DNA from: Candidatus Saccharimonadota bacterium
GTDB taxonomy: Bacteria; Patescibacteriota; Saccharimonadia; Saccharimonadales; Saccharimonadaceae
Length of the DNA: 64,000 nucleotides
Assembly: GCA_017479205.1 (NCBI GenBank)
Contig: JAFVCN010000009.1
Span: 2,179-66,178, forward strand
Reading direction: 5' to 3'
A program made the position numbers and the translations under genes. The notes under the pieces are model-generated. The model made no database searches. It had not been told where the DNA came from and was given only the letters and a program-made list of their open reading frames with translations. Below, in pieces: positions 4,635-49,726 of the stretch. Within the stretch, counting starts at the first letter, position 1. Each line of letters begins with the position of its first letter.

Positions 4635-4640
4635 ATACCT

Positions 4641-6336: not shown

Positions 6337-6996
6337 ATGATTTATGGCTATATTCGTGTTTCAACTGATAAACAAACTTTGGAGAACCAAGTTTTTGAAA
6401 TAAATAATTTTTGTAAACAACAAGGTCTAAAAATTGATGGTTGGATTTCAGAAACTATTAGCGGTACAAAAAATTATGATAAACGTCGACTTGGGAAGTT
6501 GCTCCGAAAGATTAAAAAAGACGATTTAATTATATGTGTCGAGCTATCTCGTCTTGGTAGAAACTTGTTTATGATTATGGAAATCCTAAATATTTGTATG
6601 ACGAAAGAATGTCAAGTTTGGACGATTAAAGACGGCTACCGATTAGGCGACGATATTCAGGCAAAAGTATTAGCGTTTGCGTTCGGATTGTCTGCGGAAA
6701 TTGAAAGAACCTTACTCTCTCAAAGAACAAAAGAGGCTCTAGATCGTCTAAAAGCAGAAGGGAAAAAATTGGGGCGACCAGTAGGTTCGTTTAGGCGAGA
6801 AGCTTATAAACTTTACGGAAAAGAGCAGAAAATTATAATGTTGATGGATAGTGGCTTATCATGGACAAAAATCGGTAAAAGACTGCGTTGTCATCGCCAA
6901 ACCGTCCAGCGTTATGTTTCAAAGTATTTGCCGGAATATGCAAATTTTTATTATCTTGATCCGGCAACTTTTCCAAAAGCTCATGTCGAAGCTTAA
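6337..6996 (+). CDS. small serine recombinase (resolvase/invertase family)
   Basis: [12 protein letters not shown] catalytic-serine motif, resolvase core, C-terminal HTH ([21 protein letters not shown]). SD AAAGGAG upstream. Confidence 0.85.
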
Positions 6997-15518: not shown

Positions 15519-15596
15519 ATACCTCCGATTTTTCCGCCCACATACCCTAAAATGATGTATAATATATATAATAATTATACCAAACTAGGAGTTAAA

Positions 15597-28559: not shown

Positions 28560-28592
28560 ATTAACTCCTTTTAATTTCTACGGATTTTCAAG

Positions 28593-29273
28593 CTATAGCT
28601 CCTCTTCAAGCAACATGTGCGAGAGAGCGACTTTTAAATTACCGTTTTTAACACGTATTTTATCGATAAACTCTTTCTCGTTTATGCCATCTTTTAGCTC
28701 GACTCGATAAACTAGCTCGAAAAGCGAACCCATATTAGTAGTTTTGGCTTTCTCAAGCATATTTGAACGAGTGTAAGCTAAAAAGATGTCGTCGAAAACA
28801 TTAGTGTAATCAATATCTTCAGGGACTAGAATAGTAAGACGTTTTTCGCGAGCGGCGCTTTCTCCGAACGAAAGTGCGGCTAGGATAATTAGCATAAGGG
28901 AAACTGCGATTGTAAAGATTCCCGCGAATGCGATATAACCTGTTCCGACCGCAAGCCCAATCGCCATCGCGAAGAAGACCGAGAGAATTGAGCGTGAATT
29001 TCCCGGAATTGAACGAAAGCGAACGAGCGAGAAAATCCCCATCACCGCGACCCCTGCGCCAAGATTTCCGTTTACGAGCATAATCGCGACCGAAACTAGC
29101 ATTGGTAGAATCGCAAGAGTCGTAACCATACCGGCTGAAGCGGAACGACCATAACTGCGTTTTGCGGTAAACTGATGGACAAGGGCGACGATTAGCCCTA
29201 GTATAAATGCGACACCTAAACAGATAAAGAAACTGCTTGGCGTGATTGTATCTGTGATGATTGTATTAAACAT
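28593..29273 (-). CDS. DUF4956-family membrane protein
   Basis: Polytopic N-terminus with FSLVRFRSIPGNSRSILSVFFAMAIGLAVGTGY, plus a soluble C-terminal domain. Confidence 0.55.
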   Translation of the reverse strand: MFNTIITDTITPSSFFICLGVAFILGLIVALVHQFTAKRSYGRSASAGMVTTLAILPMLVSVAIMLVNGNLGAGVAVMGIFSLVRFRSIPGNSRSILSVFFAMAIGLAVGTGYIAFAGIFTIAVSLMLIILAALSFGESAAREKRLTILVPEDIDYTNVFDDIFLAYTRSNMLEKAKTTNMGSLFELVYRVELKDGINEKEFIDKIRVKNGNLKVALSHMLLEEEL

Positions 29274-29364
29274 ATTTTTCCTTTATTTAATTATTCGATT
29301 TTATGTTCTTATTGTATCGTCTGAACCTTAAATGTTTCTTAAAAGTTTTTTATAGTCTTAAGGT

Positions 29365-30111
29365 TTATCCATAAATTTTCTGTAGTACTTTACCATATTT
29401 CGAGAAGCTTGCGGGATAAATTTTTAATCTAGAAATTGCGTCAACAAACCATTTTGGGTAACATTTAGCGCTTTTAACCTCCATAACGACCTCACCTTTT
29501 TTGAAGAATAAGTTGCCTTGATCGCCTTTTTCTAATCTTAAATCTGTTTCGCGACTACGAATATTGCGATCGAAAGTTAAGCGAAAGGTTGGATCTTTTT
29601 CATCAACATAGCTAGTGCGGTCGTAAGCAAGGAATAGCGCTGGATGGAGACGATAATAACGAAAACAATAACGAATTTCCTCTTCGATTTGGGGGTTATT
29701 AGAATAGTTTTTAACAGTTTCATCATCAACAATAGTAGCTAAATCTCCATTATCTCCAAGATATTCCGCTTCACGTTCATCGCAGAATTTATAAAAATCA
29801 GCTAATTTTATCGGGATACGGCGTTTATAACCAGTACCATCAAACTTTTTCTTGATTTCAACAAAAACTGTTTCATCGAGATTTTTAGGGATTTCATAGC
29901 TACGGACGCGAATTTTCTCCTTAAAAAGCGGTTTCTCTAGAGAGTGAATACCGAGCCATTTTGAATCAGTATCAAAATAAACTGATAGATTAGTCCCCTT
30001 AAAATATTTATCCTGTTTCAGGTATGGCTCGATAATATCAAGTAGAGCCTTAACTTGTTTCTCAGTTAGGATATATTTAGTTTCAACTCTTTCAAAAATC
30101 GTTTGTATCAT
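29365..30111 (-). CDS. VTC-domain (CYTH-like triphosphate tunnel / polyphosphate-polymerase-like) protein
   Basis: FERVETKYIL start motif, with length and charged-strand pattern typical of bacterial VTC-domain proteins. Sits next to DUF4956, as in known gene neighbourhoods. Confidence 0.55.
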   Translation of the reverse strand: MIQTIFERVETKYILTEKQVKALLDIIEPYLKQDKYFKGTNLSVYFDTDSKWLGIHSLEKPLFKEKIRVRSYEIPKNLDETVFVEIKKKFDGTGYKRRIPIKLADFYKFCDEREAEYLGDNGDLATIVDDETVKNYSNNPQIEEEIRYCFRYYRLHPALFLAYDRTSYVDEKDPTFRLTFDRNIRSRETDLRLEKGDQGNLFFKKGEVVMEVKSAKCYPKWFVDAISRLKIYPASFSKYGKVLQKIYG

Positions 30112-30182: not shown

Positions 30183-30211
30183 TTGACTTTTTAAGATGTT
30201 TATGCTATAAT
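30183..30211 (+). promoter_or_regulatory. consensus promoter
   Basis: TTGACT, 17-nt spacer, TGCTATAAT. Confidence 0.6.
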
Positions 30212-30307
30212 AGAAGCATAACCTGGTATTTTGCCAATGAGCAATAGTACCTTAACAGTTGGTGGTGAAACAGCACAAAGTACAATTTTCTAAGGAGGAA
30301 CAGTATT

Positions 30308-30871
30308 ATGGGTAAAATGAAAGATTTTTTTGCAACACTGAAAAATGAAGACCTGGAGGATATCGAGGAGAAGGCGCCGAAGAAGGTAAAGAAGCCTTCT
30401 GAGAAGGCTGCTCCAAAAGAGACATCCAAAAAGGATGAGGCTCGAGAGCCGGTATCTTCAACTGAAGCGCTTCTGAATGCGTTTGAATACGCTGCGTCAC
30501 AAGATGTTAGCGCAGACCTGACCGCAGCTCTGAAAGGGAAGGAGATTTCGAATAACCTTCGGAAACTTCTACAGGTTTTGGTCGACAACGACCATGTCCG
30601 GAAGCTCCTGCTCTCGCAGGCGGAAGTAAAGAAGCCGGAACCGAAGCCCGATGAATACGACCTCGATCCGGTTTATACGGATAAGGACGGCAAGGTTGTT
30701 CCGGACGAAGTTATCGAGGCGATGATCAAATCGGGAACGGCGCTTGAGGCGCTCGGCGTAACGGCAAAGCTCGAAAGACGGTCGAAAAAGACCGGCGAGA
30801 TTATCGGCGAAGCGAGCGAAGAAGAGTTTAAGAAGTATTTCGATGACCTTTATAAGGCATCGAAGAAATAA
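30308..30871 (+). CDS. hypothetical K/E-rich protein (first gene of G+C-richer block)
   Basis: Consensus promoter, strong SD TAAGGAGGA and a GC-hairpin terminator downstream. No family recognised. Confidence 0.5.
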   Translation: MGKMKDFFATLKNEDLEDIEEKAPKKVKKPSEKAAPKETSKKDEAREPVSSTEALLNAFEYAASQDVSADLTAALKGKEISNNLRKLLQVLVDNDHVRKLLLSQAEVKKPEPKPDEYDLDPVYTDKDGKVVPDEVIEAMIKSGTALEALGVTAKLERRSKKTGEIIGEASEEEFKKYFDDLYKASKK

Positions 30872-30897
30872 AACCACCAACTCCAGTTACACCAGGG

Positions 30898-30922
30898 GAA
30901 AGGACGCTTCGGCGTCCTTTTC
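30898..30922 (+). terminator. intrinsic terminator
   Basis: AGGACGC-TTCG-GCGTCCT followed by TTTTC. Confidence 0.7.
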
Positions 30923-30962
30923 TAATGCGATTTTACCATAAGCGGAATATCTGTTATTATTA

Positions 30963-30991
30963 TTGACAAAATTGCTTATGTATGATATAAT
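30963..30991 (+). promoter_or_regulatory. perfect consensus promoter
   Basis: TTGACA, 17-nt spacer, TGATATAAT. Confidence 0.65.
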
Positions 30992-30997
30992 GGAATC

Positions 30998-31267
30998 AGT
31001 CTATGGAATTGGGAGCTACCCCTGTTAAATAACCATAATAGGGAAAGGTAAAGAACAATTTTGTGACGACCATTAAAAACCGAATCATCTCAGGTACAAA
31101 TGTACCTGTTTTTAATATATTGTTTATCGTTTACATATATCGCCCCTCTCGGGGAAGTTTAAGCGAAAGCTTAAGCGGTTCGAGAGAGGCGTGGTGAACC
31201 TCTCGAGAATTGACACTTGCACACGCCGTGATTACGGCTCGTACACAATTCTAAAGGAGGAATCATT
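30998..31267 (+). promoter_or_regulatory. about 270-nt structured leader (candidate riboswitch/attenuator or small RNA plus leader)
   Basis: Internal intrinsic terminator at 31091-31113. Downstream is a long hairpin with a GAAA tetraloop and competing CCTCTCG/CGAGAGAGG pairings before SD AAAGGAGGA. Confidence 0.4.
31091..31113 (+). terminator. intrinsic terminator inside the leader
   Basis: CAGGTACA-AA-TGTACCTG followed by TTTTT. Confidence 0.6.
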
Positions 31268-31885
31268 ATGTTAGTAATCAATATCATTGTAGATCTGATC
31301 CTGATGGGTATAGCGGCTCATCTCTTTGCTTCGGAGCTCGAATCCGTTTCGGCGACTAGAGCTTTGAAGGACGCGGATAACCCAAAGCGTTATCTGGAAC
31401 TGGGCATAATCGGACGGATAGTTTTAGCGGCGGTTCCGATGGTTCTTTTCGTAATAATCCTACTCATTAAGAGATGGTTTATTCCGACATCAATCATTGT
31501 GCTGATCGTTGCATTGCTGTCTGAAGTAGCTTTTGTCTGGCTTAGGTTAAATGGATTTAAGACCTTTAAGGTCTGGTTAATGTTTTATTTTGCATTAACC
31601 TGGACCGGGATGAATCGAGATGCGTTCGACATATCGAAAATGACAACCTGGACTATTGCTTGGTCTGTTATTATGTCGATTACGGCGCTATTTACGATCA
31701 TCGCAGCGATTATACTGATTGGCCATGATCCGGACGCAGAGGAAGAGGACGATGAAGAAGATACAGGAATTTCTCCAATTTGGGGGAAAATCTTCAAAAT
31801 CGTTATCGTGATTGTAGCAGTAGTTGTAGTGTTTAGTTTGGCATACTGGCTTTGCAATAGCCTGATTGTGCCTAGGCTTTTATAA
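31268..31885 (+). CDS. hypothetical polytopic membrane protein with acidic loop (DPDAEEEDDEEDTG)
   Basis: About 6 hydrophobic helices. SD AAAGGAGGA upstream. No family recognised. Confidence 0.5.
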   Translation: MLVINIIVDLILMGIAAHLFASELESVSATRALKDADNPKRYLELGIIGRIVLAAVPMVLFVIILLIKRWFIPTSIIVLIVALLSEVAFVWLRLNGFKTFKVWLMFYFALTWTGMNRDAFDISKMTTWTIAWSVIMSITALFTIIAAIILIGHDPDAEEEDDEEDTGISPIWGKIFKIVIVIVAVVVVFSLAYWLCNSLIVPRLL

Positions 31886-31902
31886 GGAAGGGGGAACTAC
31901 CT

Positions 31903-33624
31903 ATGAGAAGAGTTATAGCGATTTTTCTGGTAGTAGCTCTCGTGGCTACTTCAGGAGTCCTGGTTTCTTTAGCTAAGGCGGGTGTCTTCTCCCGCTCTAA
32001 AGATAATGAGGATACAACAACCGAAACGGCTAGTACCGAAGAGCAGACTGATTCTACCATTGAGGTGGAAACGCATAATGACGGGATTAGTAAAGACGAT
32101 CCGTTGTATAATGCGAAGATTACTCTGAAGGTTAACGTGACGGATGACGACCTGAGGAAGTTTGTCGTGGATTATACCAAGAAATTTGATGACATTTCAA
32201 TGCCGTCAAATAACGACAAGCGTACTTCAGCACCAGCAAAAGTTGGCTGGGGTGAGGAAGACATGAAGATGTATGATGCAGTCGGAATGCATTTCTCTAC
32301 CGTCGAGAAGGGTAAAACCAAGTATTCAAAGAAGGACATCGAGACTATGGTCGACGAACTCCGTAAGGCAATTCGCCAAAACCCGGTCATCGGAATGATG
32401 GTACTTGAAGGAATGCAATATATGGAGCTGACGGACGGAACTATCGTTGCCGAACTCAATGCAGATTGGGTAAAGAAGGCTCTTGAGCTCTATGACGAGT
32501 ATGGCGTAGGGGTATGGCTTACATACCACACAAAGTACTGGGAGATTTACGGGTTTGAGCTTCCGCACGACGGCCAGTCGGTCGAAGAGTGGAGAGCGGC
32601 TCACCCTGACGCTCCTGAAGTAACAGAAGAGCTGATGAAACTCGTTACGGTTAGTGATGAGAAAAAAGAATATCAGCTCTTCATCAGTGAAGAGGACCCT
32701 AATAACTACGATAAGGTGTCTAAGTATATCTTGATGTGGTTAGACAGGCTGACTTGTGAAGGAGTTGAAACATACTCCACAAGTACCTTTTGGTACTTGA
32801 ACAGTCAGATGGATGCAAATCTGGTCCGTGCTATCAGAAACACCGATAAGAATCGCGTAGAATCTCTTCCTAGTCTTAACTTTTCTGTAAGAGTGAAAGA
32901 CGATAACGGAAAGATCAGACAGATTTTCTTCGGTTTTAATATATATGATATGAGGTTGTTAATCTTTGAGCGGACAGCAACTCCGACAAAGACAATTCAG
33001 CCGAGCAATCCGAAGCCGACGGGCAACACCAACCCTCCGGCACCGACTGGCAATACGAATCCGCCGAACCCGAGCGGTGGAACGAATCCGCCGAACCCGA
33101 GTGGAGGTACAAATCCTCCGAATCCGAATCCTGGAGATAATCCGAATCCTCCAGGGCCGAATCCGCCGAAGCCTCCTACTCCGGTAAATCCGGGCAAGGA
33201 CGACGGTGACGGTTCCGTTCATCATGGCGATGCGGATAAGGGCGGCGGCGAAGGCCAAGGCGGAACGGGCGCTCCGACAGGTGACCATAGTAAGGATGAT
33301 ATGCAGGACGCTCACGGTGGCTCTGATCAAAATCAGGGACACAGTAATACGAATACGGTTACTCCGGATACTCCTCCGGCCTCAAATACCGGACATCAGG
33401 ATAACGCTGCAGGATCTGGCACGAATGGTCAGAACGCTCCGGCGGATGATCATAACTCTAATACCGTAGAGAATACTAACGAGTCGCAGATGAACTACGG
33501 AGAAGACTCCGGAGCAAAATCTAACGACGATGTTAATACCTCTGGTAGCGGAGCTCCGGCTGGAACTGATAATGACATGAGTAATGACATGAGTGACGGC
33601 GCAATCGCTGAACCGGGAACCTAA
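31903..33624 (+). CDS. secreted/anchored protein with Pro-rich nonapeptide repeats and low-complexity tail
   Basis: Signal/TM MRRVIAIFLVVALVATSGVLV, a globular domain of about 330 aa, PTGNTNPPA/PSGGTNPPN repeats and a G/D/N/S/T-rich end. SD GGAAGGGGG upstream. Confidence 0.55.
   Translation: MRRVIAIFLVVALVATSGVLVSLAKAGVFSRSKDNEDTTTETASTEEQTDSTIEVETHNDGISKDDPLYNAKITLKVNVTDDDLRKFVVDYTKKFDDISMPSNNDKRTSAPAKVGWGEEDMKMYDAVGMHFSTVEKGKTKYSKKDIETMVDELRKAIRQNPVIGMMVLEGMQYMELTDGTIVAELNADWVKKALELYDEYGVGVWLTYHTKYWEIYGFELPHDGQSVEEWRAAHPDAPEVTEELMKLVTVSDEKKEYQLFISEEDPNNYDKVSKYILMWLDRLTCEGVETYSTSTFWYLNSQMDANLVRAIRNTDKNRVESLPSLNFSVRVKDDNGKIRQIFFGFNIYDMRLLIFERTATPTKTIQPSNPKPTGNTNPPAPTGNTNPPNPSGGTNPPNPSGGTNPPNPNPGDNPNPPGPNPPKPPTPVNPGKDDGDGSVHHGDADKGGGEGQGGTGAPTGDHSKDDMQDAHGGSDQNQGHSNTNTVTPDTPPASNTGHQDNAAGSGTNGQNAPADDHNSNTVENTNESQMNYGEDSGAKSNDDVNTSGSGAPAGTDNDMSNDMSDGAIAEPGT
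33001..33195 (+). repeat. imperfect tandem 27-nt repeats encoding PTGNTNPPA / PTGNTNPPN / PSGGTNPPN x2, then a degenerate Pro-rich run
   Basis: Read directly from the nucleotide and protein sequence. Confidence 0.8.
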
Positions 33625-33654
33625 TTTTCCGATAAACAATAAGAAGCACTTTTT

Positions 33655-33680
33655 GGGAGGGGGCTTAAAAACCTCCTCCC
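33655..33680 (+). terminator. GC hairpin after the Pro-rich protein gene (no T run)
   Basis: GGGAGGGGG-CTTAAAAA-CCTCCTCCC. Confidence 0.4.
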
Positions 33681-33820
33681 AATTCTAGGAATTTGTGTTT
33701 GAGATGATTCGGTTTTGGTGGCAAAGACGAAAATTAACAATTCGGCTAGCAAAACCGCGAAGAAAAGTCACGGTAGATGACAATTCTTCAAAAATATTAA
33801 CTATAAGAAAGGAGCTTAAA

Positions 33821-35422
33821 GTGAAAAAAGCTATTAAACTCGTTACGATGGCTGCTGCAGTTGCTACTGTTGGCGCTATCACAACCGCGATCGTTTCGGC
33901 TTGGGGAGATAACTCCGGCGGACGTCGTACTTATACCGTCGCTGAAATCAATAAGGGCGATTTAGGTAATAAAATTGTCTTTAACTCGATTAAAGACGAC
34001 TCGCTCAAAGCGGGTTCAATCAAAGATGAGCGTAACTTCGTTGCGGCTCGTGACGCTTCTACCGGTAATAACGGTGTTAATAACGTCTGGCAGAACAATG
34101 AAATCACGGTTGAGGAAGGCAAAACTTACATCATCCGTCTTTATGTTCATAATAACAACCCTAATGGCAGAAATGCCGTTGCTAAAGACGTTTCTACGAA
34201 CTTTAGTCTAGGTACAGTTGTTTCTACCGAACAGCGTGTCGATGGTTATATTAACTCTTCAAATGCTACCCCGTCTAAATACTGGGATGATGTCGTTTTC
34301 AAGAGTAATAACGGTAAAAAATTCTATCTTGATTACGTTGAAGGGTCTGCTCTTCTCGAAAATCAGGGCGTCGGTAAAAACGGCGGCGTAAAACTTGCTG
34401 ATAATGTCGTTACGAACGGCGTTAAAATCGGCTACGACAGCTTAAACGGTGAAGTTCCGGGCTGTTACAGCTTCGATAACTATATTACTATCGAAGTTAA
34501 ACCAGTTTTTGAATCTTCTGAAATCTCAAAAACTGTTAGAAAACTTACTGATCAGAAATTCAGCGAAAGCGTAAATGCTACAATTGGCGAAACTGTTGAA
34601 TTCCAGATTATGTACAAAAACTTAAACGCAACTCAGGTAAGTAATACTACTCTTCGTGATTCTCTTCCGAAGGGTCTAGAATATGTTGCAAACTCTACTA
34701 AGATTTACAACTCTACTTATCCAAACGGTGCAGCTGTTACTAGCGATAAATTAACTGCTGAAGGTATTAATATCGGCGGTTATAAAGTTGGTGCAAATGC
34801 CTATATCCGTTTCCAGGCTAAGGTTGTAGATAATAGCCTTACCTGTGGTACAAACCGCTTAATTAACTGGGCAAAAGCAGTTAACTATGTTGGTACTTCT
34901 ACAAACGTAAACTACTTTGCTGTCCAGGATAGTGCAGAAGTTTATGTTGAAAAAACATGTGAACAGCCAAAAGAAGAACACAAATGTGAAGTAATCTCTG
35001 GCGTTTACTATGGTAAAGAAGGTAAGGTCGTTACTAAGGAAGTTTACGATAAAGAATGTACAACTCCAAAGACCGAGCATAAATGTGAAGTCGTTTCTGG
35101 TGTTTACTACGGTAAAAACGGAAATATTGTCGACGAAAAGACTTATAAGTCTGAATGTGAATCTACCCCAACCCCAACTGAAACTCACAAATGTGAAATC
35201 GTTAAGGGTACCTACTATGGTGTAAATGGCGATACGGTTGACTACAGTACTTATAAAGCTCAGTGTGAGAAGGGCAGCAATGGAACAGTTGATACTCTTC
35301 CAAAAACTGGTGCAGCTTCAATTGCAACTGGTGTTGCTGGCCTCGGCGGAACAGTTACCGTCGCTGGTTATTATCTTGCTAGCCGTAAACAGCTTAAAAA
35401 GTATTATTTAAGTAAAAAATAG
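33821..35422 (+). CDS. LPXTG-anchored surface protein with DUF11-like fold and three Cys-bracketed repeats
   Basis: GTG 33821 lies 7 nt after AAAGGAG. Signal peptide is present. LPKTG (35297-35311), a hydrophobic helix and a basic tail (RKQLKKYYLSKK) form a sortase sorting signal. Confidence 0.8.
   Translation: MKKAIKLVTMAAAVATVGAITTAIVSAWGDNSGGRRTYTVAEINKGDLGNKIVFNSIKDDSLKAGSIKDERNFVAARDASTGNNGVNNVWQNNEITVEEGKTYIIRLYVHNNNPNGRNAVAKDVSTNFSLGTVVSTEQRVDGYINSSNATPSKYWDDVVFKSNNGKKFYLDYVEGSALLENQGVGKNGGVKLADNVVTNGVKIGYDSLNGEVPGCYSFDNYITIEVKPVFESSEISKTVRKLTDQKFSESVNATIGETVEFQIMYKNLNATQVSNTTLRDSLPKGLEYVANSTKIYNSTYPNGAAVTSDKLTAEGINIGGYKVGANAYIRFQAKVVDNSLTCGTNRLINWAKAVNYVGTSTNVNYFAVQDSAEVYVEKTCEQPKEEHKCEVISGVYYGKEGKVVTKEVYDKECTTPKTEHKCEVVSGVYYGKNGNIVDEKTYKSECESTPTPTETHKCEIVKGTYYGVNGDTVDYSTYKAQCEKGSNGTVDTLPKTGAASIATGVAGLGGTVTVAGYYLASRKQLKKYYLSKK
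34972..35274 (+). repeat. three tandem repeats of about 100-111 nt, each encoding HKCE(V/I)xxGxYYGxxGxxVxxxxYxxxC
   Basis: EHKCEVISGVYYGKEGKVVTKEVYDKEC / EHKCEVVSGVYYGKNGNIVDEKTYKSEC / HKCEIVKGTYYGVNGDTVDYSTYKAQC. Confidence 0.8.
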
Positions 35423-35459
35423 ACCGCTCCTCGCTTGAGCAAAACTTAAGCGAAAAAAA

Positions 35460-35489
35460 GTACCTCCCGAATTTTGGGAGGTACTTTTT
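35460..35489 (+). terminator. intrinsic terminator after the LPXTG gene
   Basis: GTACCTCCC-GAATTTT-GGGAGGTAC followed by TTTTT. Confidence 0.75.
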
Positions 35490-35506
35490 GTGGACAGAAA
35501 AGTGTG

Positions 35507-35536
35507 TTGACGCTGTCAACGCGCTTATGCTATAAT
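35507..35536 (+). promoter_or_regulatory. promoter with operator-like palindrome; near-leaderless
   Basis: TTGACG, 18-nt spacer, TGCTATAAT, with ATG 9 nt downstream. GTTGACGCTGTCAAC (35506-35520) is an inverted repeat over the -35. Confidence 0.55.
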
Positions 35537-35545
35537 TAAATTACG

Positions 35546-36502
35546 ATGGGTCAAGAAAATAAAAACCTTTTTAATAATCGTCTTGGGATGCGTCCGAGTC
35601 GTAACCTTTCTGCGACAGAAGAATTAAATCGTATCTCTGCTGATTCGAATCCTAACCCAGCTCCGACTGGAGATATTGTGTTGAGTAGTGGCGCGCCAAA
35701 ATCTTCTGGTGGCGGTAAGAAAGTTTTGATTATTAGCTTAATTATTTTAGTTTTTGCAGCTCTAGTAGGAGGTGCAATTTTCTTTATGATACAGGAGCAG
35801 GGGGGCAACGGCAGTAGTTCCTCATCTAGCGTAAAAGGCGATTATAAAATAGAGTTTAATCAGTTTGCTAATTACTTGATTAGGGGCGAAGTAAAAGATA
35901 CTGCTCTGACTGGTACGAATGATAGTTTAGGGAATTATGCGTTCAATAAAGCAATTCGTGGTGACGAGAATACGAAAAAGAGTTTTATGGAAAAAGCGTA
36001 TGGGTTATATGAGAAATTTAATAATGATTATTCGGCGTCTAATATTGAAGATGATGATTTGAATGCTCGAGTTAAGAGCTATTATGGTAGCATTAAAATG
36101 CTTTATCTTTACGAAATGTCGGATAAACTTAGTGACGAAGAGATATTCCGAGAGTATATTGAAAAAGGTGAAGATAGTGCGCGAGAGTTAGTTGATAATT
36201 CGTATGCAGAGATGTTTAACTCGGACTCTGAAGTTGCAAAGACATACGCGGAAGTACTGCGTGAAGCTAATAGCGCCTATTTAGCTCAGCTAGTTAAATA
36301 TGCAGGTGTTGGCTGTGTTAGTAAGGAAAATGGGCTTGATCGAAAATGTGTGGGTTTGAAGATTCCGTATGATGATGATACAAAGAATTACGAAAAAATG
36401 AGTCAAAAAGTATATAAGATGTATAATAGTGCAGTTTCGGAAATTACAAATGAATGCTGGAATATTTCAGAAGCTATAAATAAAAATGGAGAGGAGAGCT
36501 AA
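35546..36502 (+). CDS. hypothetical type II membrane-anchored protein
   Basis: A cytoplasmic N-terminus of about 60 aa, one TM (VLIISLIILVFAALVGGAIFFMI) and an extracytoplasmic domain. Near-leaderless promoter. Coupled to the next gene. Confidence 0.5.
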   Translation: MGQENKNLFNNRLGMRPSRNLSATEELNRISADSNPNPAPTGDIVLSSGAPKSSGGGKKVLIISLIILVFAALVGGAIFFMIQEQGGNGSSSSSSVKGDYKIEFNQFANYLIRGEVKDTALTGTNDSLGNYAFNKAIRGDENTKKSFMEKAYGLYEKFNNDYSASNIEDDDLNARVKSYYGSIKMLYLYEMSDKLSDEEIFREYIEKGEDSARELVDNSYAEMFNSDSEVAKTYAEVLREANSAYLAQLVKYAGVGCVSKENGLDRKCVGLKIPYDDDTKNYEKMSQKVYKMYNSAVSEITNECWNISEAINKNGEES

Positions 36503-36503
36503 A

Positions 36504-39500
36504 ATGCGCAAAAGGTTCTCAATTATCACTGTTCTTGGCGTAGTCTTTCTTGTTAGTCTATTATCTATATTTGTGCCGGTGGCTGATGTTTTTGCTGCTT
36601 CAGCAATAGATGATAAATATGTAACTAAAGATCTTTTAAACTGTTATACGCAACGTCTAAAAACCGAAATTAAACCTGATGAAGTAGATGCTACTGAGGA
36701 TTTATTACTTGATGAATGGAAGCAATATAACTGGGGTGGAAAGCCTAAAGACGAACGAGAGCCGCTCGGAACATACCATACGACGGAAAGTGGAAATGAT
36801 GAGGTTGGTTGTATTAAATTACTTGAGAGCCTTGGATTTGGCGTAAATCAGTCTAATGCTGGCGATGTTTTGACAAAACTAGGCTATGAAGCACAAACAT
36901 CAAACGGTAAATGTATGACGCTAACGCTTCAAAAACATGATGGCACGAACGATAAATACCTTGATTATACGAATCAGCCTAAAATTTGTGCTGGTAGCGT
37001 TGATTCTAACGGAGTAATTCAGGGCGAGTTATTAACGTACGCTGCTGAAGTTCCTGATGATGTAAATGACGAGGTATGGGCTGGTTTCTATCTTAACGGT
37101 AATGAAGTCCATTTTCAGATGGGTGGCGGTATAGATGTAATGCATACTGGTTCGCATAGTTGTGGATTTTTAGGTCTTAGTACATGTTATGACTATGTTA
37201 CATATACCGTAGGCTCTACGAAATGGAGTGATTTAGTAAGTCAAATTGATCAAGGGCTAAAACAAGGGTTTGACGATATAGGTAATTTCTGTTATTCGAT
37301 GGTCTGTAAGTATAAAAGCTATAGCGAATCTAATGGCGGCACCAGTGCGGTTTCATCGTACAAAATGTCGAGTGCGACAGATGCATTTAAAAAAGGATAT
37401 AAGAGTGCTTTTGGGAAAGATTACCCAGGCGATGCTACTGCGCTTAAAGTGACCAAAAAAGAGCAAGCTGTACTTTATCAAAATTATTTGAACGATTATT
37501 ATGGAATTAAGGCTGATGCTTGTGCTGATACGAAGGAAAAATCTACCGAGAAAGCTACGGACCTCGGCAGTACTTGGGTTCAGACAAAAATGTATGGGGC
37601 GGATGGTAAGGCTAAATTTTGTTATATAAGCGCTACAAAAAATGAAGGTAATGGCGTTTATGGTGTTAACGGTAGCAATAATACGACTGGTATTGTAAGT
37701 AACGGTCGGTTAAACTGGCAGGATTTGGCAGCATGGCTACTAAGTGATGGTCCAAATTCTGTTGATGCAGGCTCAGTTACGGAACCAGGTACAGGCGGGG
37801 GCGGGGGAAGTGGTAGTGGAAATATTGGGGATGGGAGTTCGTCAGATCCGTGCGAAAGAGACCCAGAATCTGAAGAGTGTCTTGAACAGCGTTGTTATCA
37901 AGAGGCTGGTTCAATGGGTTGGATTATTTGTCCAATTATCTTTGGTACGCGTAATGTTGCGGAGAATATCTATGCGACGATTGAGCCCATGATTCAGGTG
38001 GATGGTACGATAGTATCGCAGCTAGGCAGTAATGATAGTAATATTTATCGAGCATGGAATACATTTCGCGGTTTTGCTAATATCCTCTTCGTGATTCTAT
38101 TCTTAATAGTAATTTTCTCGCAGCTTACTGGTTTTGGAATTGATAATTATGGCATAAAAAAGATGCTTCCAAAACTTATAATCACGGCAATTTTAATTAA
38201 TCTTTCATTCGTGGTTTGTGCTCTTGCAGTTGATTTATCTAATATTGCAGGTAGTGCAATTAAGGGCCTATTCGAAAACTTACCAGTCAGTGGAACTATG
38301 CTGGATGGTATGAATGCCGTTAAGGGACAGAGTCATATCGTTGGCAAAGTTGTTGGCGCTCTCGCTGGTGGTGCCGGCGGTCTTGTTGCTACTTTTTCTC
38401 TTGGTGGTTGGACTCTAATTATTCCAATTCTTCTATTTCTCTTAACAACTGTTATATCAATTATCTTTGCACTTATAGTCTTAGGACTACGCCAAGCCGC
38501 GGTTATTCTTCTTATTGTATTCGCACCATTTGCAATTGCACTTTATGCTCTTCCAAATACGGAAAAAATTACGAAGAAATGGCTCGATATCTTTAAGGGT
38601 GTCCTCATGGTTTACCCTGTTGTTGGTGCACTAATTGGAGCAGGATTCTTTGCGTCTAAAATTCTTTTGGGTAATTCACCAAGTTTTCTTATGACAATTA
38701 TCGCAGGCCTGCTCTGTGTTATTCCATATTTCTTAATTCCAAGTTTAACTCGTAGATCTCTTGAGGCGGTTGGAAATATTGGTGAAAGACTTGGCAATAT
38801 GGGGCGCAATCTCGGTGGTAGAGCTAGTAATGCTGTTGGAAATTCGGAAGGCGTCAGGAATCTTAGACAGAGTTCTGCAGATAATGCGAGGTTTCGTCGT
38901 GCAAACTCAAGGTTAAGTCGTGGACTCGACAGTTTAACCATGAATGCTGCTGAAAAATATAAAAATGGTGGTGGTGGAATTAGGGGTGCAATCGCTCGAC
39001 GTACTATTGCTAGTAATAGTCGTCTCCGAGCCGCACAGAGAAATAATGACGCCCGCGTTCAGAATTCTCGTGACACTGTTTTACAAGGCGCAATGGCTGC
39101 AGCAAGCGAAACAAATCGTATGGAAACTGGTGGTTATGCTGCTCGTGCCGCAGGCCTTGAATCTAAGGCATTAGATGAGACTGTTTCCGACTATGAGAAA
39201 CTTATTGGCAGTGATAACTTTGTTGATGCTGCAGGTAATTCAGTTAATTTCCAAAATAACGGAGAGATTGCTAAAGCTCTTGAGAATGAACTTGCGATGG
39301 GTGATGGTAGTGATGCATCGAAAGCAAGAATTCGTGCCCTTACAAATACTCTTGCTGGTAAAGGGAAAGATGGACGTGATCTCATGTATAGCACTGTTGA
39401 TAATGCGCAGTCGCGGGCTGCTCAGGAGGGTAAAGATATCTCTGATAATATCAAGACCTTCTCAAGTAATATTCTTAATAACCATGGCGGTGCGATGAAA

Positions 39501-40124
39501 GATAATTATCGACCTATTTATGAATTCGCAAAGAAAACTGCTGCTACTGGTGTATCGGATAATAATAAGAACAGAATTACAGATTACGCTACGGCTGGTA
39601 TCAGTAGTCTTACCTCAAGCGATATGGCAAATATGGATATTCAACAGCTTACGCGTCTTGCTGATAATGCAGCAGCCGGTAACTTAAGCCCTCAAGATAG
39701 CCAGACTCTCAACCGTCTTGTTGGCGAAGCTATGGCGAACGAACAGGTTCAGAAAAACCAGAAAACGCTTGCTCAATTCCAGAGAATTCAGGGTGCGCTT
39801 GGTACTACTACTTCGACAACTCAAGCTGGTGGTGCTGCTCAAGAGGGAGCTGAGTTTAAGGTAAACCAAGCTGAAAATGCTGCAACTTCCGCTCAGGTAA
39901 TGAGTAATCAGAGCGAGATTATTCAGAACGTTGTTTCAGGGAATCTAACTCCAGCGCAGGGTGATCGTTGGATTGAAATTACAAAAAATCCAACTGCGGC
40001 AGAACAAGAATTTATCAATCGAACAAATCAGAAAATCGCTGATGGAACTTACACGCAGGAACAAGCAAATAAGTTAATTCGAAATATGGTTGATAAATCT
40101 TTGGAGGATAACCCAAATAGGTAA
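36504..40124 (+). CDS. 1206-aa polytopic membrane protein (signal peptide, Cys-containing ectodomain, Gly-rich linker, about 6-7 TM core, long A/N/Q-rich C-terminal region); VirB6/TrbL-like topology only
   Basis: ATG 36504 follows GGAGAGGAGAG. Hydrophobic core spans roughly nt 38050-38760. The function call rests on topology, not on a recognised motif. Confidence 0.55.
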   Translation: MRKRFSIITVLGVVFLVSLLSIFVPVADVFAASAIDDKYVTKDLLNCYTQRLKTEIKPDEVDATEDLLLDEWKQYNWGGKPKDEREPLGTYHTTESGNDEVGCIKLLESLGFGVNQSNAGDVLTKLGYEAQTSNGKCMTLTLQKHDGTNDKYLDYTNQPKICAGSVDSNGVIQGELLTYAAEVPDDVNDEVWAGFYLNGNEVHFQMGGGIDVMHTGSHSCGFLGLSTCYDYVTYTVGSTKWSDLVSQIDQGLKQGFDDIGNFCYSMVCKYKSYSESNGGTSAVSSYKMSSATDAFKKGYKSAFGKDYPGDATALKVTKKEQAVLYQNYLNDYYGIKADACADTKEKSTEKATDLGSTWVQTKMYGADGKAKFCYISATKNEGNGVYGVNGSNNTTGIVSNGRLNWQDLAAWLLSDGPNSVDAGSVTEPGTGGGGGSGSGNIGDGSSSDPCERDPESEECLEQRCYQEAGSMGWIICPIIFGTRNVAENIYATIEPMIQVDGTIVSQLGSNDSNIYRAWNTFRGFANILFVILFLIVIFSQLTGFGIDNYGIKKMLPKLIITAILINLSFVVCALAVDLSNIAGSAIKGLFENLPVSGTMLDGMNAVKGQSHIVGKVVGALAGGAGGLVATFSLGGWTLIIPILLFLLTTVISIIFALIVLGLRQAAVILLIVFAPFAIALYALPNTEKITKKWLDIFKGVLMVYPVVGALIGAGFFASKILLGNSPSFLMTIIAGLLCVIPYFLIPSLTRRSLEAVGNIGERLGNMGRNLGGRASNAVGNSEGVRNLRQSSADNARFRRANSRLSRGLDSLTMNAAEKYKNGGGGIRGAIARRTIASNSRLRAAQRNNDARVQNSRDTVLQGAMAAASETNRMETGGYAARAAGLESKALDETVSDYEKLIGSDNFVDAAGNSVNFQNNGEIAKALENELAMGDGSDASKARIRALTNTLAGKGKDGRDLMYSTVDNAQSRAAQEGKDISDNIKTFSSNILNNHGGAMKDNYRPIYEFAKKTAATGVSDNNKNRITDYATAGISSLTSSDMANMDIQQLTRLADNAAAGNLSPQDSQTLNRLVGEAMANEQVQKNQKTLAQFQRIQGALGTTTSTTQAGGAAQEGAEFKVNQAENAATSAQVMSNQSEIIQNVVSGNLTPAQGDRWIEITKNPTAAEQEFINRTNQKIADGTYTQEQANKLIRNMVDKSLEDNPNR

Positions 40125-40128
40125 ACAT

Positions 40129-40155
40129 AAACGCCTTGCGAAAAACAAGGCGTTT
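40129..40155 (+). terminator. hairpin terminator after the 1206-aa gene
   Basis: AAACGCCTTG-CGAAAAA-CAAGGCGTTT. Confidence 0.6.
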
Positions 40156-40193
40156 ATGCTATACTAAAACTAACTCTAAAGAAAGATAAAAAT

Positions 40194-40352
40194 ATGCAAA
40201 ACACAAATACTACACAAGAAACATTAAATGTTCCGGAAACGGGTTTAATTGATAATGTTACTGCTACGGCTGGTGTGATGTTCGCAATTTTTGCGATTTC
40301 GGCACTTTTAGTTGTTGCTTTGTCGATGAAAACTGCAAAGGCAGATAATTAG
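40194..40352 (+). CDS. 52-aa ORF consisting of a short polar head plus an LPXTG-like sorting signal (NVPETG, TM, KTAKADN)
   Basis: Not in the ORF track (below 60 aa). Own TGCTATACT -10 at 40157-40165. Preceded by the terminator of the upstream giant gene. Confidence 0.4.
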   Translation: MQNTNTTQETLNVPETGLIDNVTATAGVMFAIFAISALLVVALSMKTAKADN

Positions 40353-40505: not shown

Positions 40506-42683
40506 ATGAATCAAAAAGAACGAGAACGCCGTGAAAGGCTGATGAAAATGCAGGCTGAACGTCTTCCAGAAATAAAACGTCGTTTTGCTGAAAGCCAGAA
40601 AAAAGCGCAAGAAATTGTTGAAGAGCCTTCAGTTACTGGGGAAGCAGTGATTTTTGAAGAAGTTCAGAAACGTAACTTTAATTCAAACTTTAAGCCAGGC
40701 GGAAAAGACGCACATTTAGTAAAGAAAAAGGCTACGAAGAAACAGTCGGTAAAAAAGGCAACTGGAAAGGCTACGAAAGCTGATAAAGCTCAATCTCGAA
40801 AAGTTGATCTTTCAGTTTCTACCAAAAAAGGTGAGATGATGCATCACCAGAGAATGCTCTCACAGGATGTGAATGCTCAGGCAACGCAGCATATTATTGG
40901 TGTTCCAGTTAATAAATCTCGTTATAACGGTTACAACGGAGCCCAAATTACAAATGGGCAGCTAAAACAGGCTCGTCCGGATAATGATTCGGTTTTAATT
41001 ATTCCAATCGGGGGAACTGGCGAATTTGGAATTGGTAAAAACATGACCGTAATTCAGTATAAAGACGAAGCGATTGTGATCGATATGGGCGTTCTCTTTG
41101 CTGGAGATGATTATCCTGGCGTGAATTACATGGTTCCGGATATTAAATATCTTGAAGATAATATGAACAAAGTGAAGGCGATTTGTTTTACGCACGCTCA
41201 TCTTGATCATATTGGCGCTTGTCGTCATCTACTTCCAAAATTCCCGACGACAGTTCCGATTTATGGTTCGGAATTTACGATCGGTATGATTAAAAAACAG
41301 ATGTCTGAACTCGATGAAGTTCCAGATATGAATTATCTTCCAGTTGACCCGTTAAAGAACGAAAAAATTAAAGTTTCCGAGAATTTGAGTATTGAATTTA
41401 TCCATATGCTTCACTCGATTCCTGGAAACTGCGCGATTGTTGTTAGAACTCCGAATGGCGTAATTTATGTTTCTGGGGACTGGCGTATTGAACAGAATCC
41501 GATGGGTACTCAAGCAGATTTCAAACGTCTCGATGAGATTGTTAAAAACGAGGGAATTGCTTTGATGCTGAACGAATCAACAAATATTGATTCGCCGGGG
41601 CATCATCCTCATTCGGAATATGATGTGGGTGAGAATCTCGGAAAAGTAATGGATCATTACGCAAATGGACGCGTGATTGTTTCTTGTTTCTCGTCTCAGA
41701 TTTCTCGTATTGGAATGGTTATGGAAGAAGCGGCAAAGCGCGGTAGGAAAGTTGCGTTTGCTGGTTTTTCGATGATTAATAACGTCGAAGTTGCGCTTAG
41801 GACTCATCAGGTAAAAGCTCCAAAAGATACGATTATGAAGATGGAAGATATTATTAAACTTCCAGATGATAAGGTAACGATTATTTGTACTGGTTCACAG
41901 GGTGAGTTAAACGCGGTGCTAAACCGTATGGTAACGGGAGCACATAAATATATTAAGATTAAATCGACCGATACAATCGTCTTTTCATCGAATCCGATTC
42001 CTGGTAATGAGCCGCATGTTGTTTCGACGGTTGATGGGCTGCTTCGCGAAGGTGCGCAGGTAATTCAAAATGGCAAAACGCATTTATCGAATATTGGTCC
42101 ACTACATCTTTCCGGACACGCTTATTATGAAGATCATGTTGACCTTGTTACGCGCTTAAATCCGCTTAATTATATGCCTTATCACGGCGAATTCTATATG
42201 ATGCAACATAATGCCGAGATGGCAGAAAATGTTATCGGTATCCCGAAAGACCGTATTATTATCTCGGATGATGGCGACGTTGTTGAGCTGACTAAGGATA
42301 AGAAGATTAGGAAGACCGGTCGTATTCATGTTGGAAATAAGCTTTATGATGATGCAGATATGCCAGTTCACGAAGCGGTTGTAAAAGATCGTATTCATAT
42401 CTCGCGTGAAGGTATCTTTGTGATTGTTCTAACTCTCTCAAAGAAAACTGGTCGTCTAATTAAAACTCCTGATATTGTATCGCGCGCATTTATCTATCTA
42501 GATAATTCGGAAGAGCTGATTGGCAAAATTCGTCATTATCTTCGAGTTAAGACTGATCGTTCAGTTTCGACTGATCCAGAACTTAAAGTTCTGAAAGATG
42601 AAATTAAGGAAGATGTAACACGTATCCTCTTTGATGCAACTGGACATACTCCGATTGTTATTCCAGTTATCAATAAGGTATAA
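40506..42683 (+). CDS. rnj: ribonuclease J (beta-CASP metallo-beta-lactamase) with about 150-aa basic N-terminal extension
   Basis: FTHAHLDHIGA (HxHxDH), beta-CASP motifs, C-terminal domain. The N-terminus is K/R/Q-rich. Confidence 0.9.
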   Translation: MNQKERERRERLMKMQAERLPEIKRRFAESQKKAQEIVEEPSVTGEAVIFEEVQKRNFNSNFKPGGKDAHLVKKKATKKQSVKKATGKATKADKAQSRKVDLSVSTKKGEMMHHQRMLSQDVNAQATQHIIGVPVNKSRYNGYNGAQITNGQLKQARPDNDSVLIIPIGGTGEFGIGKNMTVIQYKDEAIVIDMGVLFAGDDYPGVNYMVPDIKYLEDNMNKVKAICFTHAHLDHIGACRHLLPKFPTTVPIYGSEFTIGMIKKQMSELDEVPDMNYLPVDPLKNEKIKVSENLSIEFIHMLHSIPGNCAIVVRTPNGVIYVSGDWRIEQNPMGTQADFKRLDEIVKNEGIALMLNESTNIDSPGHHPHSEYDVGENLGKVMDHYANGRVIVSCFSSQISRIGMVMEEAAKRGRKVAFAGFSMINNVEVALRTHQVKAPKDTIMKMEDIIKLPDDKVTIICTGSQGELNAVLNRMVTGAHKYIKIKSTDTIVFSSNPIPGNEPHVVSTVDGLLREGAQVIQNGKTHLSNIGPLHLSGHAYYEDHVDLVTRLNPLNYMPYHGEFYMMQHNAEMAENVIGIPKDRIIISDDGDVVELTKDKKIRKTGRIHVGNKLYDDADMPVHEAVVKDRIHISREGIFVIVLTLSKKTGRLIKTPDIVSRAFIYLDNSEELIGKIRHYLRVKTDRSVSTDPELKVLKDEIKEDVTRILFDATGHTPIVIPVINKV

Positions 42684-42690
42684 TATATAT

Positions 42691-44668: not shown

Positions 44669-44755
44669 TGGTACCCGGAACAAGACTTGAACTTGCACAG
44701 TGTTGCCACCACTAGCACCTGAAGCTAGCGCGTCTACCAATTCCGCCATCCGGGC
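44669..44755 (-). tRNA. tRNA-Leu (anticodon CAG), type II long variable arm, CCA encoded
   Basis: Reverse complement reads GCCCGGATGGCGGAATTGGTAGACGCGCTAGCTTCAGGTGCTAGTGGTGGCAACACTGTGCAAGTTCAAGTCTTGTTCCGGGTACCA. Acceptor, D, anticodon (CTAGC/TTCAGGT/GCTAG), variable and T arms all fold by hand. Confidence 0.9.
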
Positions 44756-49714: not shown

Positions 49715-49726
49715 GGACATAAGAAG

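Follow-up and report, generated by a model that had tools for sequence, protein, structure and literature searches.

Saccharibacteria live attached to other bacteria, and the way in which they attach and feed is largely unexplained. A type IV secretion system (T4SS) and several adhesins are essential for their growth on the host, through a mechanism that also awaits explanation (PMC10633639, PMC11665869). The DNA analysed here, referred to as the window, is a 64-kb stretch of the Candidatus Saccharimonadota contig JAFVCN010000009.1 (positions 2,179 to 66,178). It has a G+C content of 38.8% and is dominated by housekeeping genes, including argS, uvrA, rplY (encoding L25), aspS, clpC, clpP, ruvB, radA, rnj, pgi, iPGM, murB, folD and an aldolase gene. 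Within it lies a block of seven plus-strand genes, g1 to g7, with the VTC side on one flank and RNase J on the other. A preliminary description, made from the letters alone, had interpreted this block as a compositionally distinct cell-surface or secretion module that was either horizontally acquired or fast-evolving. The comparisons presented below make it reasonably probable that the block is an ancestral, conserved envelope gene cluster specific to Saccharibacteria, composed of two adjacent units, and not a foreign insert. The genes of the block and its flanks are as follows.

27387-30111, minus strand: divergent left flank, a trio of Cthe_2159 (carbohydrate-binding), DUF4956 and VTC genes
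30308-30871, plus strand: g1, lysine-, glutamate- and aspartate-rich protein of 187 amino acids
31268-31885, plus strand: g2, polytopic membrane protein of 205 amino acids
31903-33624, plus strand: g3, signal/anchor protein of 573 amino acids
33821-35422, plus strand: g4, wall-anchored LPXTG protein of 533 amino acids, with corrected start
35546-36502, plus strand: g5, bitopic (type II) protein of 318 amino acids
36504-40124, plus strand: g6, the giant, 1206 amino acids
40194-40352, plus strand: g7, VPETG mini-protein of 52 amino acids
40506-42683, plus strand: right flank, rnj (RNase J)

The earlier descriptions of the seven proteins hold, except that the start of g4 is GTG 33821, with the Shine-Dalgarno (SD) sequence AAGGAG, instead of 33695. 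Six of the seven products have a signal, an anchor or transmembrane segments. Together with the LPXTG motif and CLIPPER match of g4 and the link of g6 to the VirB6/TrbL superfamily, this supports the proposed nature of the block as a cell-surface or secretion module.

Conservation and genomic context of the cluster

Relatives of the cluster were collected by scanning one genome per species for relatives of g6. This survey found 251, and 79 loci were kept; apart from a few unclassified or misnamed bins, these are labelled Saccharibacteria, and they come from ruminant gut, the human mouth and elsewhere. Throughout, L001-L086 denote genome loci of relatives that were compared with the window, and L088-L167 denote further sequences carrying the leader RNA discussed below. 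L001-L005 are annotated relative contigs, L085 and L086 are near relatives, and L006 is a distant relative, the nearest species representative. The genes of 84 related loci were labelled by open reading frame (ORF) calling and hidden Markov models (HMMs), which placed g6 in 82 loci, g5 in 70, g4 in 51 and g3 in at least 27. The usual order is g3-g4-g5-g6, with zero to five genes inserted between g4 and g5, followed mostly by folD and murB.

The same arrangement is found at both short and long evolutionary range. The annotated contigs L001-L005, whose g6 relatives are 26-80% identical to that of the window, encode the same series of products of about 200, 250, 530, 500 (CLIPPER), 300 and 1170 (TrbL_3) amino acids. 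In L006, where the giant is about 50% identical, the window's flanks are retained: the Cthe_2159, DUF4956 and VTC genes border one end of the block and RNase J the other. In L085 and L086, the block lies in an identical VTC...rnj context, and the trio that adjoins the block is kept there as it is in L006. The preliminary description had suggested examining the VTC-rnj junction of close relatives for presence or absence of the block. L085, L086 and L006 all carry the block between the flanks seen in the window, and the module occurs in most of the 84 loci.

The edges of the block harbour no integrase, tRNA or other mobile-element gene among the genes scanned, direct repeats not having been searched for. 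The recombinase genes of the window are located at 3663-6996, and the nearest tRNA gene at 44669-44755. Since the same genes occur in the same order and between the same flanks in relatives, and share the codon bias described in the following section, the block is not a horizontally acquired island, and that part of the earlier interpretation is abandoned.

The suggestion of fast evolution is correct in part. Over long evolutionary distances, the divergence of g1, g2, g3 and g5 greatly exceeds that of murB or folD. Between the window and the near relatives L085 and L086, by contrast, g2-g6 show 96-99% protein identity, a synonymous divergence (dS) of 0.05-0.12 and a ratio of nonsynonymous to synonymous divergence (dN/dS) of 0.08-0.21, which resembles that of the flanking genes (0.09-0.13).

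Composition and synonymous codon choice in g1-g3

The preliminary description had based its claim of a distinct composition on G+C counts in four 60-nt lines. Recounting gave 56.7, 46.7, 36.7 and 38.3%, so that the counts were exact, and the compositional anomaly is real; it comprises three genes, g1-g3, and not seven. The interval 30308-33624 has 46.3% G+C, compared with 38.2 +/- 1.4% in 3.3-kb windows outside the block (z 5.7), and is the top tetranucleotide outlier of the window. The many antisense ORFs that had been noticed over 30.2-33.6 kb are also present. For each gene, the expected G+C content at third codon positions (GC3) was computed from the protein it encodes, using the codon frequencies of the window. 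The GC3 values of g1, g2 and g3 are 0.56, 0.46 and 0.49 against 0.30-0.33 expected, an excess of +0.26, +0.14 and +0.16 (z +7.9, +4.5 and +8.6), and that of g1 is the window maximum; outside these genes, GC3 is 0.30. The codons of g4, g5 and g6 are ordinary (z +1.5, -0.2 and -2.4). Because the excess persists given the protein sequence, amino-acid bias (Pro/Gly/Ala), which had been named as a possible sole cause, does not explain the shift. The DUF4956 gene of the flanking trio also has a raised GC3 (0.43, z +3.8).

The bias recurs in relatives. Orthologues of g3 have a GC3 of about 0.48-0.55 regardless of the local background (0.31-0.57), and those of g1 range from 0.43 to 0.63, whereas the orthologues of g4, g5 and g6 fall below background. 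A paired comparison of g1-g3 with the rest of each locus in 26 loci (the window and 25 others) separates the codon classes. Among two-fold purine-ending codons, the use of G is raised by +0.235 in g1-g3 (26/26 loci, p 3e-8); among two-fold pyrimidine-ending codons, the use of C is raised by +0.142 (26 loci, p 6e-7). At four-fold sites, the difference in G+C is -0.023 across the 26 loci and not significant. The codons raised both in the window and in the pooled orthologues are AAG, CAG, GAG, TTC, AAC, TAC, GAC and ATC. CCA is strongly avoided in g1-g3, GCC, GCG and GTG do not rise, and CGC is not favoured. A distinct signature marks g4, in which C at two-fold pyrimidine sites is raised by 0.15 and G+C at four-fold sites is lowered by 0.19. 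CTG, the codon read by the tRNA-Leu(CAG) encoded in the window, accounts for 0.31 of the leucine codons in g1-g3 and 0.05 elsewhere.

A foreign origin or GC-biased gene conversion is expected to act most strongly at four-fold sites, so the observed pattern argues otherwise. A codon-specific preference that is kept across species while four-fold sites remain unmoved indicates selection on synonymous sites. The codon bias of g1-g3 in orthologues across loci thus points to selection, not to a foreign origin. The G+C-rich look of the three genes would then stem from gene-specific synonymous choice of two-fold G and C, maintained by selection, to which the Pro/Gly/Ala-rich tail of g3 would add. One observation within the window weighs against this reading, in that the four-fold GC3 of its own g1-g3 is also up, by about 0.11.

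Recombination has affected one part of the block. The first gene, g1, encodes a K/E/D-rich product without a transmembrane segment and has HMM-detectable orthologues in 5 other loci. In many other loci, positional analogues of about 200 amino acids, likewise K/E/D-rich and high in GC3, are found upstream of g3. DNA alignment delimits a mosaic tract in the window.

30259-30705, plus strand: mosaic tract, covering the end of the g1 5' untranslated region and the N-terminal two-thirds of g1

The window is about 99% identical to L085 (3840-4320) and L086 up to about 30258, about 65% identical with insertions and deletions over 30259-30705, and again about 99% identical from 30706. The g1 protein is consequently 74% identical to those of L085 and L086, with a dS of about 1, compared with 96-99% and 0.05-0.12 for g2-g6. 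The alignment indicates that this tract of about 450 bp is an allelic replacement by recombination between strains. It is the only part of the block with evidence of exchange.

Two alternatives for the composition of g1-g3 can be weighed at this point. In the first, the block, or at least 30.3-33.6 kb of it, is an island recently acquired from a G+C-richer donor. Such an origin would fit the G+C, GC3 and tetranucleotide outliers over g1-g3 and the general rise of G- and C-ending codons in the window, four-fold sites (+0.11) included, and the recombination tract in g1 is real. It is very improbable nevertheless, given that near and distant relatives have the same genes in the same order between the same flanks, that the bias is present in the orthologues of 25 other loci whatever their background GC3 (0.31-0.57), and that relatives show no four-fold enrichment. 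The borders, moreover, lack an integrase, tRNA or mobile-element gene in the genes scanned, with the limit on direct repeats given above.

In the second alternative, the high GC3 of g1-g3 results from GC-biased gene conversion, with g1-g3 as variable surface-antigen genes in a recombination hot spot. The sharp tract of about 450 bp in g1, the fast divergence of g1-g3 at long range and the partial four-fold rise in the window are compatible with it. This process is unlikely, however, to have produced a strong shift at two-fold sites with no four-fold gain across the 26 loci, the specific avoidance of CCA, and the lack of preference for GCC, GCG, GTG and CGC. In addition, near relatives share 96-98% identity in g2 and g3, and dS in these genes is ordinary. 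Selection on synonymous sites accounts better for the codon pattern of g1-g3.

Expression signals and the leader RNA

Three promoters, a terminator and a structured leader RNA can be placed on the sequence of the cluster.

30183-30211, plus strand: g1 promoter, TTGACT-17-TATAAT with extended TG (11/12 in a consensus scan), identical in L085 and L086
30902-30922, plus strand: g1 intrinsic terminator, GGACGC-TTCG-GCGTCC followed by a T run, read from the sequence
30963-30991, plus strand: promoter of the leader and g2-g3(-g4), TTGACA-17-TATAAT with extended TG (12/12 consensus)
30998-31267, plus strand: structured leader RNA of about 270 nt, between the promoter at 30963-30991 and g2
Next to the transcription start, plus strand: leader 5' stem-loop, closed by AGUC...GAC in minimum free energy folds
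31065-31095, plus strand: near-invariant leader block GACGACCATTAAAAACCGAATCATCTCAGGT, 31 nt
31091-31108, plus strand: leader hairpin SL2
31184-31204, plus strand: leader hairpin HP2, GAGAGG...CCTCTC, followed by the g2 SD site
35507-35536, plus strand: g5-g6 promoter, TTGACG-18-TATAAT, ending 9 nt before the g5 ATG

The consensus promoters and strong SD sites reported for the first genes are present, and the SD site of g2 is a perfect match. The additional claim that these signals set the block apart from leaderless surroundings holds less well. Leaderless starts are indeed common, a -10 box lying 6-11 nt ahead of the ATG in about 15 of the 53 window genes, but several genes outside the block have strong SD sites and g5, inside the block, is leaderless too. 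As its promoter ends 9 nt from the g5 ATG, the g5-g6 transcript is leaderless.

The leader RNA lies in the 396-nt spacer between g1 and g2, which has only 3 differences between the window and L085, compared with a synonymous divergence of 0.05-0.12 in the neighbouring genes. In six species whose proteins are about 45-50% identical, the spacer keeps the g1 terminator (a hairpin and T run at the same position), the promoter at 30963-30991 with its -35 box, spacer and -10 box, SL2, HP2 (as GGAGG...CCUCC) and the SD site, as well as an identical 34-nt block, GACGACCATTAAAAACCGAATCATCTCAGGTACA. The near-invariant block is present, with up to 6 mismatches, in 22 loci. A covariance model, R1, detected 32 instances in the genome loci, every one of them preceding g2 or g3 in the same orientation, and 100 instances in 100 sources. 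Genome loci with the leader include L001-L003, L006, L007, L010, L027 and others. The distance to the SD site of the next gene is 60-190 nt, always on the same strand. An exact degenerate pattern of the leader core occurs in at least 120 metagenome contigs, with one copy each, and contigs with enough downstream sequence carry g3 in 50 of 58 cases and g4 in 52 of 58.

The two hairpins of the leader are supported by covariation. Among 81 distinct sequences, in an alignment fitted to the model, 98% of the cells are paired and 9 of 13 pairs have changed on both sides (82 cells). None of 500 shuffles reaches the observed score, and slid controls are 44-55% paired. The covariance model was used instead of RNAalifold on a MAFFT alignment, which misaligned five sequences and recovered only part of SL2. 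Rfam 15 gave no match for the leader at E <= 1 in the window and only chance snoRNA-like hits at E <= 10 in L027, and a literature search did not find the leader described. It is the most novel element of the cluster. An anti-terminator helix between the transcript 5' end and the 5' arm of SL2, proposed by eye, was rejected because the observed changes are not compensated.

A different view of the conserved element between g1 and g2 is that it constitutes a separate small RNA gene or encodes a short leader peptide, and does not act in cis as a leader. The element has its own consensus promoter, and SL2 with the T run behind it in the window (31091-31115) would stop transcription after about 110 nt; in every species, the invariant block can be read as part of a short ORF. 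Both forms are doubtful. In many relatives SL2 is followed by a weak T tract or by none, a second promoter cannot be seen ahead of g2, and the element keeps its strand and a distance of 60-190 nt to the next gene's SD site. A leader peptide was rejected on the grounds that its start and stop codons are not conserved and that third positions in the block are invariant. As a cis-acting element of g2-g3, the leader could be a stabiliser or a switch, and it could alternatively be a separate small RNA.

In the first of the two units, g1 has a consensus promoter and a terminator of its own. The second consensus promoter would drive the leader RNA, the g2 membrane protein, the signal-anchored g3 protein with its Pro/Gly-rich spacer and probably g4, a sortase-anchored CLIPPER/isopeptide adhesin-like protein. 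The codon bias of g1-g3 is accompanied by consensus promoters, perfect SD sites and a leader, a combination that most simply suggests that the expression of abundant surface proteins has been tuned to be strong or under tight control. A point against this reading comes from the L25 gene (10057-10743, plus strand), the only ribosomal protein gene in the window and presumably highly expressed, which has a GC3 of 0.19 and no preference for NNC or AAG codons. As L25 lacks the bias of g1-g3, their high expression is unproven. The four-fold G+C of the L25/Ctc gene is 0.14, a direction opposite to that of g1-g3, so at least two distinct codon regimes exist in the genome.

Surface proteins, the g5-g6 pair and known systems

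The preliminary description recognised no protein family in the block apart from the sortase signal. This is accurate for five of the seven genes, as searches of Pfam, NCBIfam and PHROGs with single proteins gave nothing for g1, g2, g3, g5 and g7; the exceptions are g4, which matches DUF11/CLIPPER, and g6, whose family matches TrbL/VirB6. The homology and structure searches that had been recommended accordingly supplied family links for g4 and g6, while the structural models of g3 and g6 found no significant fold match. Five strong hydrophobic segments are present in g2. The g3 protein consists of an N-terminal signal/anchor, a conserved domain of about 300 amino acids (approximately residues 70-360) and a low-complexity tail of about 210 amino acids rich in Pro, Gly, Asn and Asp. 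It has no match in Pfam or the PDB when the single protein, all family members or a profile against PDB sequences are searched, hits being at chance level only. Its AlphaFold model (mean pLDDT 57.6) gave no significant fold match, only PAS- and NTF2-like folds at E above 0.25; a VirB8-like fold, considered on the basis of these matches, was not used as evidence.

The most readily classified product is g4. It has a signal at residues 7-25, Cys-containing HKCE repeats and a C-terminus, LPKTG-AASIATGVAGLGGTVTVAGYYLAS-RKQLKKYYLSKK, that comprises a sorting motif, a transmembrane segment and a basic tail. It matches Pfam DUF11 (PF01345; 27.5 bits against a cut-off of 24.6, E 4.3e-6) and TIGR01451 (39.7 bits against a cut-off of 24, E 3.5e-10), as well as the anchor models Gram_pos_anchor of Pfam (20.5 bits, cut-off 20) and TIGR01167 (17.7, cut-off 15.9). 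DUF11 has been renamed CLIPPER, an intramolecular-isopeptide domain (PMC12617251). By these profile matches, g4, which has homologues in 51 loci, is a classical sortase-anchored DUF11/CLIPPER wall protein. The window ORFs scanned included no sortase.

The second unit would be a leaderless operon of g5 and g6, joined by g7 in the lineage of the window. The g5 protein is bitopic, with two conserved Cys residues and an ectodomain that appears helix-rich from its sequence. It adjoins the giant in 70 of 82 loci and is the obligate upstream partner of the giant. Neither Pfam, searched with all family members, nor PDB sequences, searched with a profile, contain a relative of g5 beyond chance level. 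Homology of g5 to VirB8 was considered and rejected, given the helix-rich ectodomain and weak PDB hits that are all helical bundles or coiled coils. Tandem duplication has produced three g5-g6 pairs in L001 (9098-22447), two in L006 (one inverted) and two in L060. In L024, L029, L076 and L080, another uncharacterised protein of about 1050 amino acids follows the giant.

The giant itself, g6, begins with a signal peptide and continues with a Cys-rich ectodomain of about 450 amino acids (14 Cys), a transmembrane core at about residues 470-750 and a cytoplasmic tail of about 450 amino acids composed of helical repeats. The core contains about six hydrophobic segments at residues 527-746 besides the N-terminal signal, above the five-helix minimum of TrbL/VirB6 proteins, and shows the strongest conservation in the family, including invariant motifs such as SQLTGxGIDNYGIKKxLPK. 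The gene at 15552-16304 (plus strand) specifies a DsbA-like thioredoxin, the presence of which fits the formation of disulfides in the Cys-rich ectodomains of g6 (14 Cys), g4 and g5.

Several matches relate g6 to channel subunits. It is 100% identical to the NCBI protein IJ798_00735, which has a precomputed hit to Pfam TrbL_3, and such a hit is recorded for 9 of 9 database relatives, several of them marked weak. Pfam TrbL is matched by 13 of 41 members of the g6 family (best E-value 9e-7), and the weak hits of three sequences are collinear across almost all of the profile. These matches suggest a weak link that would place g6, as a VirB6/TrbL-like protein, in the TrbL/VirB6 superfamily. The g5-g6 pair may accordingly build a conduit or scaffold in the membrane that is related to the T4SS channel subunit of Gram-positive bacteria. 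Its genes lie away from any virB4 cluster, and its probable partners at the site of contact with the host bacterium are the wall-anchored proteins encoded next to it.

A number of observations weigh against this assignment. The window's own g6 reaches only E = 0.18 against Pfam TrbL (PF04610; 12 bits, residues ~557-725, profile positions 25-183 of 215), below threshold, so the link depends on other family members and on the precomputed weak hit. Searches of PDB sequences with g6 alone or with a 41-sequence profile gave no match, and neither did tblastn of the g6 core against plasmids. In the AlphaFold model, computed from a 9-sequence alignment, the transmembrane core has a pLDDT below 40 and only the ectodomain and tail are confident; Foldseek against the PDB returned nothing at E <= 1e-3, only helical-repeat look-alikes. 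Among the window genes scanned and in the annotated loci L001-L005, there is no virB4, virD4, virB3 or pilin gene, nor a virB8 or prgI gene. In several of the other loci, neighbours of about 730 amino acids were taken to be FtsK and RNase J on the model of L003 and the window. Finally, g1, g2, g3 and g5 are without detectable relatives of known function in family searches and, for g3 and g5, PDB searches.

There is thus an appreciable, though lesser, chance that g5-g6 is unrelated to type IV secretion, the giant being a transporter, a wall-biogenesis factor or an adhesion scaffold whose TrbL hits reflect a generic resemblance between helical bundles. The lack of T4SS ATPase and pilin genes nearby in the loci examined, the subthreshold Pfam score, the failure to match PDB or plasmid sequences and the usual proximity of murB and folD would suit such a protein. 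Generic resemblance is harder to reconcile with TrbL matches in 13 of 41 members (best 9e-7) that keep the same order over nearly the whole profile, or with precomputed TrbL_3 hits in all nine database relatives. A location away from virB4, moreover, has a precedent, having been recorded for 176 of 480 VirB6 homologues in Patescibacteria (PMC12102498). A relationship of g5-g6 to a T4SS channel subunit therefore continues to be the preferred reading.

The last gene, g7, encodes MQNTNTTQETLN-VPETG-TM-KTAKADN, where TM is a transmembrane segment, which is little beyond a sortase-type sorting signal. A copy that is 74.5% identical lies directly downstream of a giant in L006 (3146-3298, minus strand), the only such ORF among 84 giants, and 1.84 billion proteins include a single representative, of 52 amino acids and 73% identity. 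Judged from these sequence matches, g7 is a real, lineage-restricted gene, and its product may be a sortase-processed mini-protein or a sortase decoy.

Other features of the window concern the surroundings of the cluster. RNase J has an N-terminal extension of about 160 amino acids rich in K, R and Q, its metallo-beta-lactamase domain beginning near residue 163. A CmpB-family gene follows at 42631-43605 (plus strand), the longest ORF of which starts from TTG and overlaps the end of rnj by 53 nt, its true start being probably downstream. The tRNA-Leu(CAG) gene at 44669-44755 (minus strand) is the sole tRNA gene of the window. Two adjacent genes at 48758-52501 (plus strand) both open with zinc-ribbon domains, the first encoding a 318-amino-acid Yip1-domain membrane protein and the other a 924-amino-acid protein with TSP3 repeats and a VWA domain, and represent a candidate surface or adhesion pair. 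Remote from the block are genes for a tyrosine recombinase of the Xer or phage-integrase type (3663-4604, minus strand), a serine resolvase with a helix-turn-helix domain (6337-6996, plus strand) and a GmrSD_C-type nuclease (14152-14877, minus strand).

Taken together, these results remove the false lead of a genomic island and define a widely conserved envelope cluster that comprises a membrane protein, a spacer-bearing secreted protein, an LPXTG protein with an isopeptide domain and, together with its partner, a VirB6-like giant. The first genes of this cluster are under unusual codon selection, and its strongly conserved leader RNA could be a regulatory element in reduced genomes. The combination of consensus promoter and leader is also a natural expression element for Patescibacteria genetic tools. 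A more speculative proposal, of fairly low probability, is that the leader represents a new class of Saccharibacteria-specific regulatory RNA that would sense a metabolite, protein or RNA signal and switch on the dominant surface-protein operon, and that the products of this operon and the adjoining orphan VirB6-like conduit (g5-g6) would jointly form a virB4-independent host-contact apparatus.

Parts of the cluster can be compared with known systems. Leaders that act as mRNA stabilisers or switches in Firmicutes include the 5' stem-loops of the aprE and ermC leaders and the STAB-SD element of cryIIIA. The leader described here would resemble them in having a stem-loop within a few nt of the 5' end and, well ahead of the true SD site, an SD-like GGAGG, in preceding genes with very strong expression signals, and in occurring in an organism that has RNase J. 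It differs in that this GGAGG pairs with CCUCC to form a covarying hairpin, and in its 31-nt near-invariant single-stranded block, which has no counterpart in those leaders.

Gram-positive conjugation systems contain the VirB6-like proteins ConG (ICEBs1), TcpH (pCW3) and PrgH (pCF10), and the LPXTG adhesins PrgA/B/C are encoded upstream of the channel genes of pCF10. As in these systems, a large polytopic protein, by its profile matches of the VirB6 family, would act in a monoderm cell, with a sortase-anchored protein encoded just upstream. In contrast to them, the present cluster lacks genes for a relaxase, coupling protein, VirB4, VirB3 and VirB8 and is chromosomal, core and non-mobile, and the sequence similarity is at the superfamily level only. 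The rvhB6a-e proteins of Rickettsiales (PMC12857230) offer another parallel, as very large VirB6-like proteins with big hydrophilic domains that are tandemly duplicated and encoded away from the remaining T4SS genes, in bacteria that depend obligately on a host and have reduced genomes. They belong to another phylum and envelope type, whereas the g5-g6 pair has no demonstrated link to a VirB4 machine and includes an obligate small partner, g5.

The closest comparison lies within the same bacterial class. In Saccharibacteria, the essential T4SS is encoded near dnaA, where the genes for two giants of about 1000-1100 amino acids, SEML1_0011 and SEML1_0013, flank that for the 279-amino-acid NTF2-like SEML1_0012 (PMC10633639). 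The two giants of Southlakia epibionticum have been assigned ARM-repeat (ARM-like) tails (Table S2 of PMC10633639). The comparison draws on published descriptions of the SEML1 and TM7x giants (PMC10633639, PMC12102498), not on their sequences. Like SEML1_0011 and SEML1_0013 (with SEML1_0012) and TM7x_00055 and TM7x_00060, g6 is a polytopic protein in the range of about 1000-1200 amino acids; SEML1_0013 is also assigned to the TrbL/VirB6 type, and the tail of g6 is helical like the ARM-like tails. In SEML1 and TM7x as well as here, a gene for a bitopic protein of about 280-300 amino acids lies immediately upstream of a giant. The SEML1 and TM7x giants, however, belong to a dnaA-proximal cluster with virB4, prgI and VirB2-like pilins, none of which is nearby here. 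Their core is located near residue 150, whereas that of g6 follows an ectodomain of about 450 amino acids, and g5 is predicted to be all-helical, in contrast to the NTF2-like SEML1_0012. By this analogy, g5-g6 resembles a dispersed, paralogous variant of the SEML1 giant theme.

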